The notes: generated from the sequence alone by a model not told the origin. A stretch of 49,906 nucleotides of DNA from Candidatus Aenigmatarchaeota archaeon (GCA_016219485.1 JACRMX010000003.1:1-49906); one strand, 5' to 3'. Positions 2,078-45,100 are shown, counted from the first letter of the stretch. Made by a program: numbers and translations.

Positions 2078-2166
2078 GATAAATATCCCCACTGGAAATT
2101 TTTCTTTGGGGTAAACCCTAGACCTTTCTTTTGTTCTCAAACCAACGAAAAGAAAGGGATTGGGAA

Positions 2167-2358
2167 CGGGCGCGGAGGGATTTGAACCCCCGACCTTCTG
2201 GTCCGAAGCATCGTCCCCTAACTTTTTAGTTTTTGATCAAACTTTTTCCTAAAAAGTTTGAGCCAGACGCTCTTTTTGTCAGCCTTCTCTCTTTTTAGAG
2301 ATAATTTTATTTTTTTCTCTTTTTCCCCAAGGGCTTATCCAAGCTAAGCTACGCGCCC
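2167..2358 (-). tRNA. tRNA, probably Arg(UCG), with about 118 nt of intervening sequence in the anticodon-stem region
   Basis: The 5' part is GGGCGCG-TA-GCTT-AGCTTGGAT-AAGC and the D arm is intact. The 3' part is CTTCGGA-CCAGA-AGGTC-GGGGG-TTCAAAT-CCCTC-CGCGCCC-G. The anticodon loop CTTCGGA would place the anticodon UCG at 2206-2204. The 5' anticodon-stem strand is either CTTGG (adjacent, one intron at 2326-2209) or TCTGG (2267-2263, two introns). The isotype call is tentative. Confidence 0.6.
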
Positions 2359-2466
2359 AATTTTCTTCTGAAATTGTGCGGCAGTTCTGTTTAGTAAAAC
2401 AGAACTACGCGCCCAGGAATAAATGCGCTCAAACAAACTTAAAAGCATATTTTCATATTTATTTCT

Positions 2467-3528
2467 ATGGATATAATGAAGGTGCTGAAAGACATGTCCC
2501 CTGAAATTGACAGGGCAATAGAAAAATATATTCCAAGAAAGTATGACAAAAAGCGTCTGGAGTTTGCACTAGGCAAGCCTTCTTATAAATATAATATGGA
2601 TGCGCCAAACAAAGCAGTGGCTAAACCTATATGGAATTTGCTGGACAGGGGCGGCAAACGCTGGAGGCCTTGCCTGATGATGTTTGTATGCGAAGCGTTT
2701 TCCGGAGAATGGAAAAGGTTTGTGGATTTCGCAGTAATACCAGAAGTCATACACAATGGCACGCTTCTTGTCGATGATATTGAGGACGGAAGCGAGCTGA
2801 GAAGGGGCAAGCCCTGTGTGCATAAAATATTCGGCGAGGATGTTGCAATCAATGCAGGCAATGCGATGTACTTTCTTCCGCTGCTCGTGCTTATGAAAAA
2901 CAGAAGCAGGCTGGATAAAGACCGCATTATAAGAGCTTACGAGATTTACACGCAGGAGATGATAAACATTTCATTCGGCCAGGCAATGGACATTGCATGG
3001 CATAAAGGCATTGCAAACGCAGACAGCATAACTGAGGAAGAGTATCTGCAGATGTGCGCATACAAGACAGGAACGCTTGCACGAATGGCTGCAAAGCTCG
3101 GTGCGCTGATAAGTGGTGCTGATGAAGATGCAATGGAAAAAATAGGCAGGCTTGCAGAAAGCATAGGCGTGGCTTTTCAGATACAGGACGACATACTTAA
3201 CATTGCACCTTCAGAAGGCTGGGGAAAGGAAACAGGCGAGGATATAACAGAAGGCAAAAGAACGCTGCTTGTTATTCATACGCTAAAAAAGGCAGGAAAA
3301 GACAAAAAAAGACTGCTGAAAATTCTCACTATGCATACAAAAGACAAAAAAACAATAGAAGAGGCGATATCGCTAATAAAGAAACACGGTTCAATTGATT
3401 ATGCGACAGTTGCTGCAAAGAAAATCGTTACAGAGGCATGGAAGGATGCAAACGCAGTTCTGCCTGAAGGCCGGGCAAAGGATAAAATCAAAGCATTGGC
3501 TGATTTTTCCATTGAACGCGAAGTTTGA
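2467..3528 (+). CDS. Geranylgeranyl diphosphate synthase (trans-polyprenyl synthetase)
   Basis: The first Asp-rich motif is LLVDDIEDGSELRRG and the second is FQIQDDILN. The length of 353 aa is typical. Confidence 0.9.
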   Translation: MDIMKVLKDMSPEIDRAIEKYIPRKYDKKRLEFALGKPSYKYNMDAPNKAVAKPIWNLLDRGGKRWRPCLMMFVCEAFSGEWKRFVDFAVIPEVIHNGTLLVDDIEDGSELRRGKPCVHKIFGEDVAINAGNAMYFLPLLVLMKNRSRLDKDRIIRAYEIYTQEMINISFGQAMDIAWHKGIANADSITEEEYLQMCAYKTGTLARMAAKLGALISGADEDAMEKIGRLAESIGVAFQIQDDILNIAPSEGWGKETGEDITEGKRTLLVIHTLKKAGKDKKRLLKILTMHTKDKKTIEEAISLIKKHGSIDYATVAAKKIVTEAWKDANAVLPEGRAKDKIKALADFSIEREV

Positions 3529-3563
3529 ATTTTTATATATAAATGTAAAAAGAAAGTTTAATT

Positions 3564-4829
3564 ATGAAAGGCATCACACAAGCCTTTTTCTCCCGAGAAA
3601 AACGAAAACGAAGAGACGCATTGAAAATGCGTCAATCGGCTGGAAAAAGAGGGAATAGAATCTATTATTCAGGAAAACAAAAAGGCATCACGCCAGTTAT
3701 CGCTATTGTTCTTCTTTTGATGATTACCATAGCCATCGTAGGGTTTTCCTTTACGTTCCTCTCTGGCATGTTCCAAACCACGACTGAGACTACAGGAAAG
3801 CAGATTGCACACCAGCTTGGCGCCATGTCATCGTGCATGCAGATTGATTCAATCTATGGAAACAATGTTTACATAAGAAACTGCGGTTCAGGCTCGCTGT
3901 ACAATTTCAGCGTTTACGTTGATGGTAAAAATATAGCAGTGCAAAATCCTAGCCTAGTTATAGGAGAAAATGGAATAGGCAAAATTATATTATCAGAAGG
4001 CTTCGCCGGCGAAAAAATTAAGGTCAGCTCATCCTCAGCCAGCATTGAACAAAAAGCGCCAGCCATATCTGTCTATATCTCAGAAGGTGAGAATGAAAAA
4101 TTCTCAAATGGCGGGCGTTGTTCGCCTGACCTGTATGTGCTAGAAAACAAAAAGGTGAGGTTTTTTGTTGCATTGCCACCCATTCATGCTGGTGATTGCT
4201 CTTCGGGTTCCTACCCTGAGTTTTCAGGAACTCCCATGCGCATATGGACAAAAAATTCTGACTCACCGAGCTACAGGAAAGACAGTACTGTTATAGACGA
4301 TACTCTCCTTATGATACCATCAACAGTAATCAACAACAGGAATAATTTTTATGCAATCGAAAACGGACTTGAAATACAATTCAATCAGCAGGGCAATATA
4401 AAGCCAAAAGCAAGGTACACGATGTCAGAGAATTCCAACTATGTTAAAGTCGAGCTCAGGGCAGAAAACGTAGGCACATCAGCAGCAACTGTGAGACTAT
4501 ACTGGTACGGTGATCAGGATGGCGCAGGAACATGCCATTTCCAGTCTGGATTGCAGGGTAGTTGTAGTACAGCCGATCTTGGATTAAACCATGGCGAAAA
4601 ATGGCTTGCAGAGTGGACAGCAAAAAATGACATAATGGGATATATTGTCCAGACTGGTGAAGTTGAAATTTACGCCAACTATGAGAGCGTTAGAGTTGAA
4701 GAGACATCTTCAACAACTCTGCAGCCAGGAGAAACGCATACGTTTGTTTTCTACATAGTGTCTGACTTTAAAGGGCCTGCTGGCAACGAATGGAAACCTA
4801 TACAGGACACGTATAATAATTTAATTTAA
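3564..4829 (+). CDS. Archaeal type IV pilin-like protein with a large C-terminal domain
   Basis: A class III signal-peptide-like N-terminus (KQKG-ITPVIAIVLLLMITIAIVGFSF, Pilin_N style) is followed by about 350 aa of Ser/Gly/Asn-rich extracellular sequence. The true start is possibly the internal MRQSAG. Confidence 0.65.
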   Translation: MKGITQAFFSREKRKRRDALKMRQSAGKRGNRIYYSGKQKGITPVIAIVLLLMITIAIVGFSFTFLSGMFQTTTETTGKQIAHQLGAMSSCMQIDSIYGNNVYIRNCGSGSLYNFSVYVDGKNIAVQNPSLVIGENGIGKIILSEGFAGEKIKVSSSSASIEQKAPAISVYISEGENEKFSNGGRCSPDLYVLENKKVRFFVALPPIHAGDCSSGSYPEFSGTPMRIWTKNSDSPSYRKDSTVIDDTLLMIPSTVINNRNNFYAIENGLEIQFNQQGNIKPKARYTMSENSNYVKVELRAENVGTSAATVRLYWYGDQDGAGTCHFQSGLQGSCSTADLGLNHGEKWLAEWTAKNDIMGYIVQTGEVEIYANYESVRVEETSSTTLQPGETHTFVFYIVSDFKGPAGNEWKPIQDTYNNLI

Positions 4830-4857
4830 AAATCTATTATTTTTAAATGTGAACTAC

Positions 4858-4930
4858 CCGCCACTACATTGGAAAAAACAAAGTTTTTTCCATGCATAGA
4901 AAAGCTTTGCTTTTCTATGAAGTGGTGGCA
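4858..4930. repeat. Two-hairpin member of the dispersed hairpin family, enclosed by an outer stem
   Basis: Sequence layout is gccactaCATTGGAAAAAACaaaGTTTTTTCCATGCATAGAAAAGCtttGCTTTTCTATGaagtggtggc. A 33-nt stretch is identical to the reverse complement of 9607-9639. Confidence 0.8.
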
Positions 4931-4940
4931 TCAAAGCCTG

Positions 4941-5624
4941 TCAGAATTCTATCAGCTTTTTCTGCTCTTTTTCCGCCTTTATTGTCCTGGCAGTTATCCA
5001 GCTTGAGCGCACAAAGTCAGGAAACGAGCCATTGCTGCTAAACCATTCTCTTAGAAATTTTATTGTTGCCGGGTCTGATGAATAGCCTGTGCCACGAAAG
5101 CCGTAGCGCTGGCGAAGCCTTTCTATCTCCTTGTCTCTGTTTACTTTTGCTATCACAGAGGCTGCAGAAACAGGCGGGTGATTCTTGTCTGCAAAGTTCT
5201 CGCAGATGATTTTGCAGTCAAAGCCAAGCCCTGTTTTTATTTTCCTGTGAAAACCGTCAACATTGGCTTCTATGGCGTCTATAATTACCATGTCAGGCTC
5301 TGTGATTTTTATGATAGCCTTCATGGTTTCTATTTCTATGCGGTTAAGATTGGTCTTTGTCCTCAGTCTATCTATATCCTGCGCAGAAATCGATGAAAGA
5401 CTGACATCAAGCGCAAGCTTTTCAAGCTCTGGTAAAATGGATTCGCGCTGCTTTGCTGTCATCATTTTTGAGTCCCGGACGCCTGTTTTTCTGAGATGTC
5501 TTATGTTTTTTTCTTCTATTACATAGCCGCACATCACAAGCGGACCGACAACAGGGCCTAACGGCGATTCATGAGTTCTTGCTCATAAATCTCTACCGGC
5601 CTCATCGATCCCTAAAATCTTCAA
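4941..5624 (-). CDS. rnhB: Ribonuclease HII, interrupted by a 33-nt intervening sequence that contains an in-frame TGA
   Basis: The ORF track starts at 5537 (MMCGYV...). The same frame extends upstream to TTG 5624 and encodes KILGIDEAGR. Deleting 5559-5591 gives GIDEAGRGPVVGPLV, the canonical RNase HII N-terminal catalytic motif. The C-terminal part has SAASVIAKV and GSGYxSDP-like motifs. Confidence 0.85.
5559..5591 (-). other. Candidate BHB-bounded mini-intron (33 nt) in rnhB
   Basis: Contains the only stop codon (TGA 5583-5585). Forms a 10-bp hairpin GAUUUAUGAG-CAAGAA-CUCAUGAAUC. The flanks can form the helix CGGU/GCCG, with AGA and UUA bulges exactly 33 nt apart and an outer GGCC/GGCC pairing. 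Confidence 0.6.
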
Positions 5625-5631
5625 ATACCGG

Positions 5632-5639
5632 TCACCTCC
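5632..5639 (-). promoter_or_regulatory. Shine-Dalgarno-like GGAGGTGA upstream of rnhB exon 1
   Basis: GGAGGTGA lies 7 nt upstream of TTG 5624. Similar GGAGG or GAGGTG elements precede ftsZ, gatB and several pilin genes in this window. Confidence 0.5.
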
Positions 5640-5756
5640 TTCCACAACGATTGCAGGCCATTTTTTATTTTCTTAAAAATAATGCCAGGAATCTCATCCT
5701 CTACCACATGATGCAAAAATAGACAGAACTATAGCTCCAAAGAATATAAAATAAAA

Positions 5757-6149
5757 TTAACAAGTTTCTGTTACTTTGTTTGCCAGCCCTGTTACCTTTA
5801 TGCTATCGCCAGTTGCACAGAACGATGTTTTGGTGCAGCTTGCTATTCCGCCTGCTGCTATTGTTGCAGAGCTCCATGTACAGTTTGAAAGAACACTATT
5901 TACATAAACAACGAGTATGCTGGTATTAAGCGAAGCTGAGCCTGTATTCCTTACTGCAACGCCGCCTGCATAGACATTGTCTATGGATATCGTGCTTGCA
6001 AGCGCGCCTGTCTGGCTCTGGGTCTGCTCCTCTGTCTTCTCTGTAGCTATTCCAAGAATCTTCTGGAAGAAGCCGAATACAAATCCGACGATGGCAACTG
6101 TTATCAGCAACAAAAGCACTACTGCCACCACTGGAGTGATTCCTTTCAT
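5757..6149 (-). CDS. Archaeal type IV pilin-like protein (130 aa)
   Basis: The N-terminus MKG-ITPVVAVVLLLLITVAIVGFVFG is nearly identical in style to the 3564 gene. The C-terminal domain is small and Ser/Thr-rich. Confidence 0.7.
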   Translation of the reverse strand: MKGITPVVAVVLLLLITVAIVGFVFGFFQKILGIATEKTEEQTQSQTGALASTISIDNVYAGGVAVRNTGSASLNTSILVVYVNSVLSNCTWSSATIAAGGIASCTKTSFCATGDSIKVTGLANKVTETC

Positions 6150-6183
6150 GTAAATAAATATGCAACAGCTGCTTATAAAGGTT

Positions 6184-6822
6184 TCAGCGGATGCTTAGCA
6201 CAAACTTCCAGATATATGGAATCAGAAGCAATATCAGTAGCATTGACACGATAAGCAGCATCCCTCTTTTCCATCCTTCCCTTTTAAAGCCAAAAGCAAG
6301 GCCTATGAAAAGCCCGCCAAAATGCGCAGCATAGGATATGTTACCGGTTCCCTGGATAAACCCTATGGCATTATAAAGCGAATACATTACCCCAAGCAGC
6401 GCCAAAGGCACGGGTATGAAAAACGGGTAAAGGGAAAGGTCAAAGGGCCTGACTATCATGCCTAGCCCTACCAGCGCGAAAATGCCTGCACTTGCTCCTA
6501 TTGCAACTGTTTCAGAAGAATAAAAAAACAGCGATACGAAATCTCCAAAAAATGCGCCAGTGAAAAACAGCGCCAGCATCTTCAGCATGCCAAGCTCTGA
6601 TTCCACAGCAGCGCCAAAGAAGAACAGCACAAGTATATTTGACAGCAGATGCTCCAGCGAACCATGCAAAAATATGGAAGTCAGGAGTATCCACGGCCGT
6701 GTGGCAACAGCCTCACCGGAAAAACCATACTCCCCGAAGAACTGACTGTAGTCGGAAACGAAAAATACGGTGTAGACAAAGCCTGCTATGCACAAAAAAA
6801 TAAGAAAAAGCGTAAGCCTCAT
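6184..6822 (-). CDS. Rhomboid family intramembrane serine protease
   Basis: Polytopic membrane protein with HGSLEHLLSN, the catalytic GASAGIFALVG motif (GxSxG) and a downstream AHFGG histidine. The start was set to MRLTLF (6822). The ORF track extends to 7008. Confidence 0.75.
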   Translation of the reverse strand: MRLTLFLIFLCIAGFVYTVFFVSDYSQFFGEYGFSGEAVATRPWILLTSIFLHGSLEHLLSNILVLFFFGAAVESELGMLKMLALFFTGAFFGDFVSLFFYSSETVAIGASAGIFALVGLGMIVRPFDLSLYPFFIPVPLALLGVMYSLYNAIGFIQGTGNISYAAHFGGLFIGLAFGFKREGWKRGMLLIVSMLLILLLIPYIWKFVLSIR

Positions 6823-7272
6823 GCTGTTTCCTTTATCATAGGCTGGATAAAAAGATTTTATAGAAAAAACATATGGCGTTGCATCAGTACTCTGCATCTG
6901 CAAACATTGTTTTTGGATAAATTTGGCTATCCACACGAGAATAAATGTTCCCAATGGCACCAGTGAGCTCTTTTGAGCCAACTGCGCATAAATAACTATA
7001 CTATTCAAAATATATTAGATAAAATAGAAATGCTTTTTAAACGGTTACGTGATTAGTTTATATTCAAAAATTCAAAAATTTGCTTTTTTCCCTTGGACAA
7101 GGAAAATCGCATAGAACGCGAATGGACTTTGAACGAGAACTAGACAACTTCTATTTGATGGACTGGACTTTTGGACTAAAGGAGCATTGTTGCCTTATAT
7201 TTAAAGGCTTTTCGATGCTTAAAAGGATATTTTCGGAGATATATGTTTCCGGGAAACAAAGGAGGGGGTTAG

Positions 7273-8325
7273 ATGAATGAACTTAAATTTGACAACGTGA
7301 ACGGTGAGTTCGATGCCCACAAAGCGCGAATTCTCGTTCTAGGAGCAGGAGGAGCAGGTTGTAACACCGTTACGAGGCTCAGCGAAATAGGAATATGCGG
7401 CGCAAACATAATTGCCTTCAATACAGATGCAAAACACCTTTCAATCACCAAAGCTGAAAAGAAGATACTTATCGGAAAGGACCTGACAAGAGGCTTGGGA
7501 GCAGGTGGTTATCCTGAAATAGGCAAAAACGCTGCGTTGGAAAGCAAATCGGAGATCAAAGAAATTCTGAAGAATGTGGACCTGGTATTTATCACGTGCG
7601 GTCTTGGTGGCGGTACTGGTACAGGTGCTGCACCTGTGGTAGCAAAGGTTGCGAAGGAAGAGGGCGCAATAGTAATCGGAGCTGTTACACTGCCTTTCAA
7701 GCTTGAGGGAGCGAGAATCGTAAAAGCAGAAGAAGGTCTGGCACGATTAAGGGAAGTCAGCGACACGGTAATAGTAATAGAAAACCAGAAACTCTTGAAA
7801 TTCGCTGGTGAGATGCCGCTGAAAAAAGCCTTTGAAGTAGCAGACGACCTGATAGCCACGATGATAAAGGGCATAACAGAAACCATCAGTGAACCATCGC
7901 TTGTTAACCTTGACTATGCAGACGTAAGGGCTGTTATGAAATCAGGCGGTGTTGCAGCAATTGGCGTTGGCTACGCAGAATCACAGCACAGGGCACAGGA
8001 AGCAGTAGCAAAAGCTTTGAACCATCCATTGCTGGAAGTAGACTACGCAGGCGCAAAAGGAGCCCTTATCCAGGTTATAGGCGGAGAGGACATGAAGCTG
8101 GATGAGATTGGTGTAATAGGAGAAACTGTCTGCAAGGAACTTGACCCAGAATCCCAGGTAATATGGGGCGCTAGAGTGATACCTAAATTCGAAGGCATAC
8201 AGGTCATCACCATTGTAACAGGCGTAAAGAGCCCATACATACTCGGGCCTGTGCAGATGGAAGAGGTTGAAAGAGCTTCAGAAAGCAGGGTTTCCAGGGA
8301 ACTGGGAATCGAGATCATAAGATAG
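7273..8325 (+). CDS. ftsZ: Cell division GTPase FtsZ
   Basis: Has the tubulin signature GGGTGTGAAPVVA, VLGAGGAGCN, NTDAKHL, and the T7 region NLDYADV. GGAGGGGG lies 5 nt upstream of the ATG. Confidence 0.95.
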   Translation: MNELKFDNVNGEFDAHKARILVLGAGGAGCNTVTRLSEIGICGANIIAFNTDAKHLSITKAEKKILIGKDLTRGLGAGGYPEIGKNAALESKSEIKEILKNVDLVFITCGLGGGTGTGAAPVVAKVAKEEGAIVIGAVTLPFKLEGARIVKAEEGLARLREVSDTVIVIENQKLLKFAGEMPLKKAFEVADDLIATMIKGITETISEPSLVNLDYADVRAVMKSGGVAAIGVGYAESQHRAQEAVAKALNHPLLEVDYAGAKGALIQVIGGEDMKLDEIGVIGETVCKELDPESQVIWGARVIPKFEGIQVITIVTGVKSPYILGPVQMEEVERASESRVSRELGIEIIR

Positions 8326-44152: not shown

Positions 44153-44677
44153 ATGCTACAAAATTATAGCAGATATAAAGTGTTGCAGGAATTTTTCGAT
44201 TTCCCAAGAAAGAGTTTTCAGATGAGGGAACTCTCCAGAATGGTAAAGCTTGCCCAACCTTCGGTAATAAATCATCTTGAAGCGCTGCAGAAAGAAGGGC
44301 TGGTAATAAAGGAGAAGCGCGGTATCTATCCATCATTCCGTGCGAACCGGGAAAGTGATGATTTCAAATTGTTGAAAAAACAAAACCTCGCATGGCGCAT
44401 CTACAATTGCGGCCTAATTTCTTTTTTGGACCAAGAGCTAAGGCCAGACTGCATTGTTTTGTTTGGCTCAGCAGCTAGAGGCGAGGATACGGAATCGAGC
44501 GACATCGACATGTTTATTCAGGCAGAAGAAACAAGCCTGAGGCTGGAAAAATATGAAAGAGCTTTGAATAGAAAGATAAGCCTGGTTTTTGAGACTAAAG
44601 TAACTAAGTTGAGCAAAGAGCTGCTGAACAACATAATCAATGGAGACGTACTTTACGGCTACATGAAGGTGTTTTGA
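44153..44677 (+). CDS. Minimal nucleotidyltransferase (MNT) with an N-terminal wHTH
   Basis: The NTase motif is LFGSAARGEDTESSDIDMFI. The N-terminal part is an HTH (MRELSRMVKLAQPSVINHLEALQKEGLV). Confidence 0.75.
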   Translation: MLQNYSRYKVLQEFFDFPRKSFQMRELSRMVKLAQPSVINHLEALQKEGLVIKEKRGIYPSFRANRESDDFKLLKKQNLAWRIYNCGLISFLDQELRPDCIVLFGSAARGEDTESSDIDMFIQAEETSLRLEKYERALNRKISLVFETKVTKLSKELLNNIINGDVLYGYMKVF

Positions 44678-45100
44678 ATGTTGGAATGGGATGAGATGAC
44701 AGAGCAGGTAACAAAGATTGCGCCTGACAAGGAAAAAGCAAAGGCGCTGCTGCAGATCATAGCGTTGCGGGAGAAAAACATAGCTTTGATGAATACGGGC
44801 GAATTTGCGACATTGATAGTCGAAGATTATTATGATATAATGAAAGAGCTGATAACTGCCATTATGTCGGTCGATGGCTGGAAAACTGTAAGCCATGAAA
44901 TGCTGATAGGCTATCTGGCAAGATTTTACAAGGAATTTTCGCAGGCAGAACTGTACGCAATTGACCAGCTGAGAAAAACTAGGAACGACATCTCGTATAG
45001 GGGTGCAAAAATAAAACCAGACTATCTGACAAGAAATGGGGAGCTTATTTTGAAAATAATCGGCAAATTAAAACAAACCGTGGAGAGAAAAATAAAATAG
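44678..45100 (+). CDS. HEPN domain protein (partner of the MNT)
   Basis: Starts 1 nt after the MNT stop. All-helical, 140 aa, with an LRKTRNDISYRG motif region. Confidence 0.6.
   Translation: MLEWDEMTEQVTKIAPDKEKAKALLQIIALREKNIALMNTGEFATLIVEDYYDIMKELITAIMSVDGWKTVSHEMLIGYLARFYKEFSQAELYAIDQLRKTRNDISYRGAKIKPDYLTRNGELILKIIGKLKQTVERKIK

Follow-up and report, generated by a model that had tools for sequence, protein, structure and literature searches.

What is the 33-nt insert that interrupts the gene for ribonuclease HII (rnhB) in a genome of Candidatus Aenigmatarchaeota? The stretch of DNA in question (GCA_016219485.1, JACRMX010000003.1:1-49906; 49,906 nucleotides, the whole of which is called the window in the following) carries rnhB on the minus strand; a TTG start at 5624–5622 opens MKILGIDEAGR, which is continued by DL-stop-ARTHESPL and then by GPVVGPLVMCGYV, up to the stop at 4941. 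The internal stop is an in-frame TGA (5585–5583, minus strand) inside the insert, and an ORF finder begins the gene only at GTG 5537, past the insert. It appears highly likely that the insert is a mini-intron of the bulge-helix-bulge (BHB) type in the coding sequence of rnhB, which would be spliced out by the tRNA splicing endonuclease. The grounds for this reading are the anatomy of the insert, the conservation of its site, covariation in its helices, the logic of the reading frame and selection on the exons; the splicing event and the participating enzymes we infer from these.

That the frame from TTG 5624 runs through KILGIDEAGR into DL-stop-ARTHESPL, and that the called gene lacks the N-terminus of RNase HII, had been stated in the original prediction, which was made from the sequence alone; direct reading of the minus strand confirmed both. 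Against the Pfam family RNase_HII (PF01351) the ORF beginning at GTG 5537 aligned with positions 17–198 only. The restoration of RNase HII by deletion of 33 nt, as had been claimed, was likewise borne out: removal of either 5559–5591 or 5560–5592 (A5592 and A5559 are interchangeable) yielded the identical protein of 216 amino acids, which aligned with positions 1–198 of the 199 positions of the Pfam profile (E = 6.9e-46), the comparison that had been proposed as a check. The full-length RNase HII domain, including the N-terminal catalytic motif DEAGRG, is thus present in the spliced product, and the junction obtained in silico reads ...GCCGGUAG joined to AGGCCCUG. The spliced protein is colinear from residue 1 with RNase HII of Pyrococcus horikoshii (1UAX), MKVAGVDEAGRGPVIGPLV (residues 1–207, E = 6.6e-48), and its best protein matches are RNase HII sequences of Aenigmatarchaeota. 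A tblastn search with the spliced protein covered 5624–4944. Exon 1 encodes MKILGIDEAG and the first two bases of the arginine codon, and includes the catalytic Asp-Glu. The arrangement GAGGTGA-spacer-TTGA at the start of the gene was also found in relatives, both with and without the intron. Upstream of rnhB, a pilin-like gene is located in the window (5757–6149). The features of the locus are compiled in Table 1.

Table 1. Positions of the rnhB exons, the predicted intron and the RNA structural elements in the window.
Feature	Position	Strand	Basis or remark
Shine-Dalgarno-like GGAGGTGA	5632..5639	-	direct reading; upstream of rnhB start
rnhB exon 1, TTG to AG of the Arg codon	5593..5624	-	profile and structure alignment, tblastn
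33-nt BHB-type mini-intron (predicted)	5560..5592	-	cuts between G5593 and A5592 and between U5560 and A5559; homologous inserts elsewhere
rnhB exon 2, A completing AGA (Arg), GPVVGPLV... to stop	4941..5559	-	ORF, profile, structure alignment
Central helix, 5' strand CGGU, end of exon 1	5595..5598	-	pairs with 5562-5565
Central helix, 3' strand GCCG, near intron 3' end	5562..5565	-	covariation, 32 sequences
5' bulge AGA	5592..5594	-	predicted cut between G5593 and A5592
3' bulge UUA (with G5558 for a 4-bp central helix)	5558..5561	-	predicted cut between U5560 and A5559
Intron hairpin, 10 bp, 6-nt loop CAAGAA	5566..5591	-	5591-5582 with 5575-5566, loop 5581-5576
Outer helix, 3'-exon strand	5542..5557	-	5555-5557 with 5599-5601; 5542-5551 with 5602-5611
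Outer helix, 5'-exon strand (GGAUCGAUGAGGC)	5599..5611	-	fold and family alignment

The 10-bp hairpin that had been noticed in the insert is present, with one U.G pair. Of the BHB anatomy drawn originally, the pairing of CGGU with GCCG and the bulges AGA and UUA could be traced; an outer helix GGCC/GGCC alongside a central helix of 4 bp could not, as C5598 had been counted twice. Since C5598 cannot sit in the outer and the central helix at the same time, the motif in the window is a relaxed BHB and not a strict 3-4-3 structure. The fold of a 76-nt region reaches -32.4 kcal/mol (z = -4.55), and one of 200 shuffled sequences was as stable. A conformer with a central helix of 4 bp, an outer helix of 3 bp and a UUAG bulge (conformer A) lies 1.0 kcal/mol above the minimum-energy fold; conformer B, with a central helix of 3 bp, an outer helix of 4 bp and a GUUA bulge, lies 0.1 kcal/mol above it. 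CUG at 5552–5554 is unpaired within the 3'-exon strand of the outer helix. No match to Rfam was found in the window at gathering thresholds.

Metagenome and species-genome collections were scanned with the pattern GGNRTNGAYGARGCNGGNAG-N(13-43)-CCNTTAGG, which left free the third bases of the alanine and glycine codons and most of the intron. The scan provided 32 distinct sequences, i.e., the window and 31 further distinct loci, and four more loci were obtained from the contexts of an endonuclease gene (see below). An insert at the DEAGRG site of rnhB was thus found in 35 other distinct archaeal loci; in 34 of them it is situated in the same arginine codon, and in one, the Micrarchaeota locus L074, 2 nt downstream. 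Lengths of 21, 28, 29, 30, 31, 32, 33, 34, 35, 36, 37, 38 and 42 nt occur, with 29 nt in 13 pattern-scan loci and in L081. It had been pointed out originally that the insert is 33 nt long and carries a stop codon; this is correct, but the TGA and the divisibility by three are incidental, since most of the lengths are not multiples of three and, in most relatives, an insert of 28–38 nt shifts the frame. When the insert was taken out, G[IVL]D[ED]AGRG and an open frame resulted every time, with more than 200 amino acids where the contig allowed it; identities between the spliced proteins of the family range down to 42%. According to the record titles, the sequences belong to Aenigmatarchaeota, Woesearchaeota (complete chromosome CP066683.1), Micrarchaeota, Nanoarchaeota and Norongarragalinales, and two further intron-bearing records are titled as bins of "uncultured Methanosarcinales". 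All bacterial pattern matches of 48 nt proved to be uninterrupted rnhB genes, in which CCNTTAGG encodes ...LPLG, and L015, L016, L035, L031 and L051 (Zestosphaera) were also discarded as false positives of the pattern scan. An assembly error, which the original prediction had named as grounds for its own rejection, is excluded because the insert recurs in about 35 independent assemblies.

A number of homologues in the databases lack the N-terminus and start with MPLGPV... or MLNLPLGCV..., which echoes the ...SPL followed by GPVV in the window. The very same site is occupied by an insert in their contigs, of 29 nt and frame-shifting, with conserved flanks (GCCGGTAGA...GCCGTTAGG) and unrelated internal hairpins. 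Shortening of rnhB by gene callers was seen in the window and also for P0101, P0111 and P0114. Among the best 120 RNase HII matches, 3–6% look interrupted; seven of these proteins are truncated at the N-terminus, and four of the seven were checked in the DNA.

For the analysis of covariation, the exon ends and the intron ends of each of the 32 distinct sequences were aligned without gaps. The central helix of 4 bp is paired to 100% and free of mismatches in this set, in which G7, G8, C40 and C41 as well as the UUA bulge were fixed by the search pattern and are therefore uninformative, and both of its free positions covary. The third base of the alanine codon and intron base -3 form the combinations C-G (23 sequences), U-A (5), G-C (3) and G-U (1); for the third base of the glycine codon and intron base -6 these are U-G (15), C-G (7), U-A (7) and G-C (3). 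A fifth type of central-helix pair, A-U, is contributed by L081. None of 500 shuffles reached the observed covariation score, and pairing fell to 23–52% when the partners were slid by one to three columns. The complete four-pair central helix is part of the minimum-energy fold of RNAfold in just 5 of the 32 sequences, and the version with 3 bp is often found instead; the central helix of 4 bp is thus backed by covariation and not by thermodynamics. If the third base of the alanine codon is a guanine, no pair is possible with the G that invariantly begins the following glycine codon, and the covariation therefore favours the central helix of 4 bp over the alternative usually preferred by RNAfold.

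In every homologous intron a hairpin abuts the bulge and the central helix, and its sequence differs each time; the four pairs nearest the junction are paired to 97.7%, with changes on both sides at all four. All members share a 3-nt 5' bulge that the intron hairpin closes, and in the window and most other members either the 3' bulge comprises 4 nt, or just 3 bp remain in the central helix. The outer helix between the exons is paired to about 89% across the family, which is weak evidence because this helix lies in conserved codons. After the Gly-Pro codons, the sequence GUCAU is present in 19 of 32 alleles with the intron and in one of five without it, a sample too small for a conclusion.

The splicing endonuclease cuts canonically between nucleotides 2 and 3 of each bulge, which corresponds to the 37/38 geometry of tRNA introns. 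In the window, canonical cuts would join ...GGUAG to AGGCC... and give GGU AGA GGC (Gly-Arg-Gly) in a colinear RNase HII; equivalent cuts restore the conserved product in all 36 loci. Some loci are informative with respect to the exact position. The 5' bulge of L063 is AGC, and canonical cuts lead to arginine there, while the sole other pair of cuts preserving the frame leads to serine. The 3' bulge is UUA, AGA, UAA or AAG, depending on the lineage; in L077 and L082 (AGA) and in L081 (UAA), the third bulge base is the A of the AGA codon. The Micrarchaeota locus L074, with an intron of 21 nt, possesses a strictly canonical BHB, consisting of the outer helix GCUG/CAGC, the central helix GCAG/CUGC, the bulges AGA and AAG and the hairpin UUUG/CAAA, from which canonical cuts yield GLDEAGRGSVLGPLV. 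As judged from L063, L074 and L077, the frame and the conserved arginine are both restored only if each bulge is cut between its second and third nucleotide.

Genes with the insert are functional and under purifying selection. Between L017 and L036, which both contain the intron, 82 synonymous and 28 non-synonymous codon differences were counted; for L018 and L032, also both with the intron, the numbers were 89 and 26. L055 (with intron) and L071 (intron-less) differ in 27 nucleotides of the gene but in just three amino acids. Recurrence, covariation, the logic of the cut sites and purifying selection together lend support to the BHB intron, and to the tRNA splicing endonuclease as its processing enzyme, as originally proposed.

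The following course of events would be expected. In the pre-mRNA, CGGU, the last bases of exon 1 before the arginine codon, would pair with GCCG near the 3' end of the intron; the AGA bulge would be closed by the 10-bp hairpin of the intron, and the UUA(G) bulge, of 3–4 nt, by the helix between the exons. The endonuclease EndA would cut each bulge between the second and third nucleotide, and a ligase of the RtcB type would then connect ...GGUAG with AGGCC..., resulting in the message for a full-length, catalytically complete RNase HII. An unspliced message could provide only a peptide of 11 residues before the stop, or an N-terminally truncated protein without the catalytic Asp-Glu. EndA is considered to be present in all archaea. 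Neither EndA nor RtcB was present among ten size-matched ORFs of the window which were scanned against Pfam; these represented GatA, GatB, GNAT, HhH-GPD, an ATPase, a nucleotidyltransferase and unknowns. The contig of L074 carries tRNA_int_endo genes, one EndA-domain gene being 1.2 kb away. The EndA enzymes of DPANN archaea bear loop inserts which have been linked to a broad substrate range (PMC5829648). With ARAGORN in default mode no tRNA was detected in the window or in 31 loci; the intron mode made five calls, one of them a doubtful tRNA-Phe(aaa) at 2166–2359 of the window.

Other explanations of the insert can be weighed against these data. The 33 nt might never be removed, being a hairpin element or a spacer that confers immunity to a homing endonuclease, and rnhB would then be a pseudogene or encode a truncated, inactive protein. 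The in-frame stop and the truncated gene calls would fit such a state, and a second rnhB might exist elsewhere; an intact second copy had been named originally as an argument against the intron, and tblastn found none in the 50-kb window, which is what the search covered. On the other hand, about 35 lineages, with identities down to 42%, have kept exon frames of more than 200 amino acids with a strong excess of synonymous changes, the codons of exon 1 as well as the Shine-Dalgarno sequence and start are retained, and the paired positions covary, which a dead insertion would not maintain. As far as sequence goes, a decaying pseudogene is excluded, because open frames of 200 amino acids with a synonymous excess have been kept; the permanent presence of the insert in the message is accordingly rated as very improbable. 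An excision by another route, e.g., by an endonuclease recognizing the hairpin or by a self-cleaving element, followed by ligation, with a merely fortuitous likeness to a BHB, appears improbable to nearly the same degree, and nothing in the data requires it. The 3' bulge is indeed non-canonical in most members, and the scanned ORFs of the window included no EndA; but inserts of 28–42 nt are too small for any known self-splicing intron, there is no Rfam match, and the conserved features are exactly those of a BHB, namely the 4-bp helix, the 5' bulge of 3 nt, the flanking hairpin and cuts after bulge nucleotide 2. In addition, the Micrarchaeota version is fully canonical and has an EndA-domain gene close by on its contig.

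Least probable, with hardly any chance left to it, would be a mechanism without RNA cleavage, in which ribosomes bypass the insert, as they do the gap in gene 60 of phage T4, or read through the TGA. There is a superficial likeness, as the stop follows three codons past the arginine (AGA GAU UUA UGA) and a stable hairpin spans the insert. But no matched take-off and landing codons result in DEAGRGP: a hop from GGU to GGC skips arginine and glycine, and one from AGA to AGG leads into another frame. Upon read-through, 11 extra residues would come to lie in the catalytic loop, and the inserts of 28–38 nt in the relatives shift the frame, with stops at no fixed position. An exon base that covaries with intron base -3 or -6 is predicted by a BHB and not by bypassing. 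Removal of the insert as a BHB intron is the preferred reading.

BHB introns themselves possess neither ribozyme nor reverse-splicing activity. In 12 relatives an ORF of the LAGLIDADG type abuts rnhB directly upstream and 11 of these contain the intron, an association which, as a 2x2 test of intron and endonuclease, is biased by the way in which the loci were collected, so that only five look-ups starting from the ORF are unbiased; these showed it upstream of rnhB in five of five contexts and the intron in four of the five, compared with the 3–6% of apparently interrupted genes among the best 120 RNase HII matches. Among the distinct pattern-scan loci with enough upstream sequence, 7 of 24 have the ORF directly upstream of rnhB, and the Pacearchaeota locus L075 has the ORF and an rnhB without intron. 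The ORF family comprises 168 database matches of about 340 amino acids from several DPANN phyla. Two LAGLIDADG-like motifs with acidic residues, GLWLAEGD and GFFAGEGN, are conserved to at least 90% in 118 homologues. Pfam LAGLIDADG_3 (cut-off 22.5 bits) scored 27.6 bits with the ORF of L001 and 21.4 bits with that of L055. An AlphaFold model of the ORF (pLDDT 93.6) gave I-DmoI as best match (probability 1.0, TM 0.63), with two winged-helix domains following the I-DmoI-like part. The ORF adjacent to rnhB is therefore considered a putative LAGLIDADG homing endonuclease similar to I-DmoI. In the window, no remnant of the endonuclease gene was found by tblastn. The sequence GAGGTGAT...TTGA before rnhB had been taken as a possible relic of its 3' end; it is also present in the intron-less loci L073 and L079 and represents a ribosome-binding site and start.

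Within the protein tree, rnhB genes with the intron are interspersed with others that lack it, and the protein of L055 (with intron) is 99% identical to that of the intron-less P0069. L055 and L071 share 96.6% of their DNA sequence and differ in one block, which comprises the ORF, exon 1, the intron and the start of exon 2; the extra segment of about 1.1 kb in L055 holds an ORF of 338 amino acids which ends at the start of rnhB. The site in L071, which lacks the intron, reads GAAGCCGGCCGCGGCCCGGTGATAGGG. Over the initial 21 nt of exon 2, the two loci differ at seven of seven third-codon positions, and only 20 differences follow in the next 619 nt. Joint presence or absence together with a tract that resembles co-conversion suggests a mobile unit of endonuclease gene and intron, while selection for the outer helix could be another cause of the synonymous tract. 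It is probable that the intron family travels in many DPANN genomes with a LAGLIDADG gene directly upstream of rnhB.

A composite selfish element could thus be envisaged, consisting of an ORF-less BHB intron and a free-standing LAGLIDADG gene which spread by collaborative homing, with an orphan intron in the window; we regard this tentatively, at somewhat less than an even chance. The endonuclease would cut intron-less rnhB alleles at the DNA coding for DEAGRGP, while the target site in the genome of the element would be split by the BHB intron. When the break is repaired, the recipient would receive copies of the endonuclease gene, of exon 1 with the intron, and of approximately 20 nt from the beginning of exon 2; later loss of the endonuclease gene would leave an orphan intron as in the window. 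If true, this would explain how protein-spliced introns of archaea get into genes that code for proteins. To our knowledge, collaborative homing has so far been described only for a phage group I intron.

We know of only one protein-coding sequence, cbf5, that has been found interrupted by a BHB intron in over twenty years. A literature search yielded no paper on a BHB intron in RNase HII (rnhB) or in an mRNA of DPANN archaea. A review from 2023 lists two archaeal mRNAs with BHB introns in total and expects more (PMC10485636). The gene rnhB would very probably be the second archaeal protein-coding sequence with a BHB intron, after cbf5. New in comparison with cbf5 would be the DPANN superphylum, the position in the catalytic motif of an enzyme of DNA repair and replication, and the occurrence in at least four named candidate phyla. 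RNase HII appears to be systematically mis-annotated as truncated in these genomes, e.g., as database proteins beginning with MPLGPV..., and intron-aware gene calling should be needed for reconstructions of metabolism and repair in DPANN archaea. The adjacent LAGLIDADG gene makes it testable how BHB introns spread into new genes.

The closest counterpart is the intron of cbf5, which reportedly was described for Crenarchaeota (Desulfurococcales and Sulfolobales) by Watanabe in 2002 and Yokobori in 2009. Introns in cbf5 pre-mRNA possess relaxed BHB motifs and are spliced by EndA (PMC2738675; PMC10485636). Like that of rnhB, the cbf5 intron is short, lies inside the coding sequence and has a relaxed BHB at the exon-intron borders; both are patchily distributed, with gains and losses, and are routinely mis-called in annotations. 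Removal of the cbf5 intron by the tRNA splicing endonuclease and a ligase has been shown experimentally, while the rnhB intron is known from sequence. In contrast to cbf5 of the TACK group, the host gene is rnhB, the hosts are DPANN archaea, the codons of the catalytic DEAGRG motif are affected and a LAGLIDADG gene is often in the neighbourhood. The original prediction had presented cbf5 as the lone case, which holds for coding sequences; a further mRNA is HVO_1309 of Haloferax volcanii, whose 5' UTR contains a BHB intron of 46 nt that is cut by EndA in vitro and gives rise to spliced RNA in vivo (PMC7714728; PMC10485636). It is a BHB in an mRNA like that of rnhB, but is located in an untranslated leader of a euryarchaeon, interrupts no reading frame and has no associated endonuclease gene.

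BHB introns in archaeal rRNA and tRNA genes occur with LAGLIDADG enzymes, e.g., I-DmoI, from the 23S rRNA intron of Desulfurococcus mobilis. The rnhB system shares with this example the combination of a BHB-type intron with a monomeric LAGLIDADG enzyme of two motifs. The gene for I-DmoI is inside the intron and its host is an RNA gene, whereas the rnhB introns are ORF-less, with 21–42 nt, and the endonuclease gene is free-standing just upstream of a protein gene; in the window it is missing. With respect to this organization, the cyanophage S-PM2 is comparable, where the free-standing gene for F-CphI adjoins an intron-containing psbA and collaborative homing takes place (PMC6083498). Both cases have an ORF-less intron at a conserved coding site and an adjacent free-standing endonuclease gene, and if the same logic applied to rnhB, the intron would shield the host copy from the endonuclease, which in turn would mobilise both elements. 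The components are different: S-PM2 is a phage and has a self-splicing group I intron with an enzyme of the Endo VII type, while rnhB would combine a protein-spliced BHB intron with a LAGLIDADG enzyme in cellular archaeal genomes.

A gene for a conserved protein of about 340 amino acids lies directly 5' of rnhB, on the same strand, in the loci of 12 relatives (listed in the table), and its stop codon overlaps or adjoins the rnhB start. The protein combines an I-DmoI-like two-motif LAGLIDADG domain with two winged-helix domains. The predicted mini-intron was present in 11 of the 12 rnhB genes with this gene upstream; the window lacks this protein. Just 5' of the intron-less rnhB genes of loci L073 and L079, ORFs open with a YGIDESG motif resembling the start of RNase HII; beyond this motif the two ORFs share no relationship with one another, with the LAGLIDADG protein or with any Pfam family.

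A different, LAGLIDADG_3-type ORF (193–255 amino acids) was observed immediately 5' of a tRNA gene near rnhB in the near-identical strains L055 (with intron) and L071 (without), between which this region is likewise variable. The tRNA gene (Rfam tRNA, 31.1 bits) is 149 nt long and therefore intron-containing; the arrangement may represent a second instance of an endonuclease gene adjoining a BHB-intron gene. No tRNA or other RNA genes were detected in the window (1-49906, 50 kb) by default ARAGORN and Rfam searches, and ARAGORN in intron mode proposed just one gene there, a questionable tRNA-Phe(aaa) at 2166-2359 (-) that would contain a 96-nt intron.

Coordinates of features in the window and in related rnhB loci (L)
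Feature	Location	Strand	Remark
LAGLIDADG-protein gene	L055:4388-5404	(-)	directly upstream of rnhB
LAGLIDADG-protein gene	L001:1076-2095	(+)	directly upstream of rnhB
LAGLIDADG-protein gene, further loci	L038, L021, L023, L059, L066, L074, L075, L077, L081, L082
tRNA gene/LAGLIDADG_3-type ORF region	L071:2832-2980 and L071:2963-3544	(-)
LAGLIDADG_3-type ORF region	L055:5939-6706	(-)
YGIDESG ORFs	L073:747-1412 and L079:2227-2952		just upstream of intron-less rnhB
Pro-replacing codon	L003, L005, L042		exon 2, second codon past intron
Pilin/archaellin-like N-terminus genes	window 5757-6149 (-) and 3564-4829 (+)		flank rnhB
tRNA_int_endo-domain genes	L074:1-276 and 698-1840

In three of the eight loci whose Glu codon is GAA rather than GAG, the conserved Pro of GRGP is replaced by Cys or Ser (codons UGU, UGC, UCU), and the replacement restores an A-U pair of the outer helix; RNA structure may have driven the change. 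In public protein databases, the mini-intron has led gene callers to produce artefactual RNase HII entries, which begin with MPLGPV or MLNLPLGCV or start at an internal Met and lack the exon encoding the catalytic Asp-Glu. Shortened entries P0101, P0111 and P0114 were checked at the DNA level; P0091, P0092 and P0112 are probably of this kind too.

Window positions 2467-8325 are syntenic with NCBI contig JAIYGY010000037.1, both containing rhomboid, a pilin-like protein, rnhB and polyprenyl synthase, with FtsZ nearby. The rnhB of that contig is 73% identical to the window's (BLASTP) and runs without interruption (GAG TCG GGC AGG GGA CCA). In the window, rnhB is flanked by genes for two proteins whose N-termini resemble those of archaeal type IV pilins or archaellins (MKGITPVVAVVLLLLITVAIVGF..., ...QKGITPVIAIVLLLMITIAIVGF...). 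Elsewhere (44153-45100, +), a 174-amino-acid ORF with HTH and Pol-beta-type nucleotidyltransferase domains is followed at once by a 140-amino-acid ORF; by the domains of just the first, the pair looks like a nucleotidyltransferase-type toxin-antitoxin.

On the Micrarchaeota contig L074, the LAGLIDADG-rnhB pair is preceded, at a distance of 1.2 kb, by two tRNA_int_endo-domain genes, one of which encodes a protein of 380 amino acids, a size matching the three-unit epsilon-type EndA.
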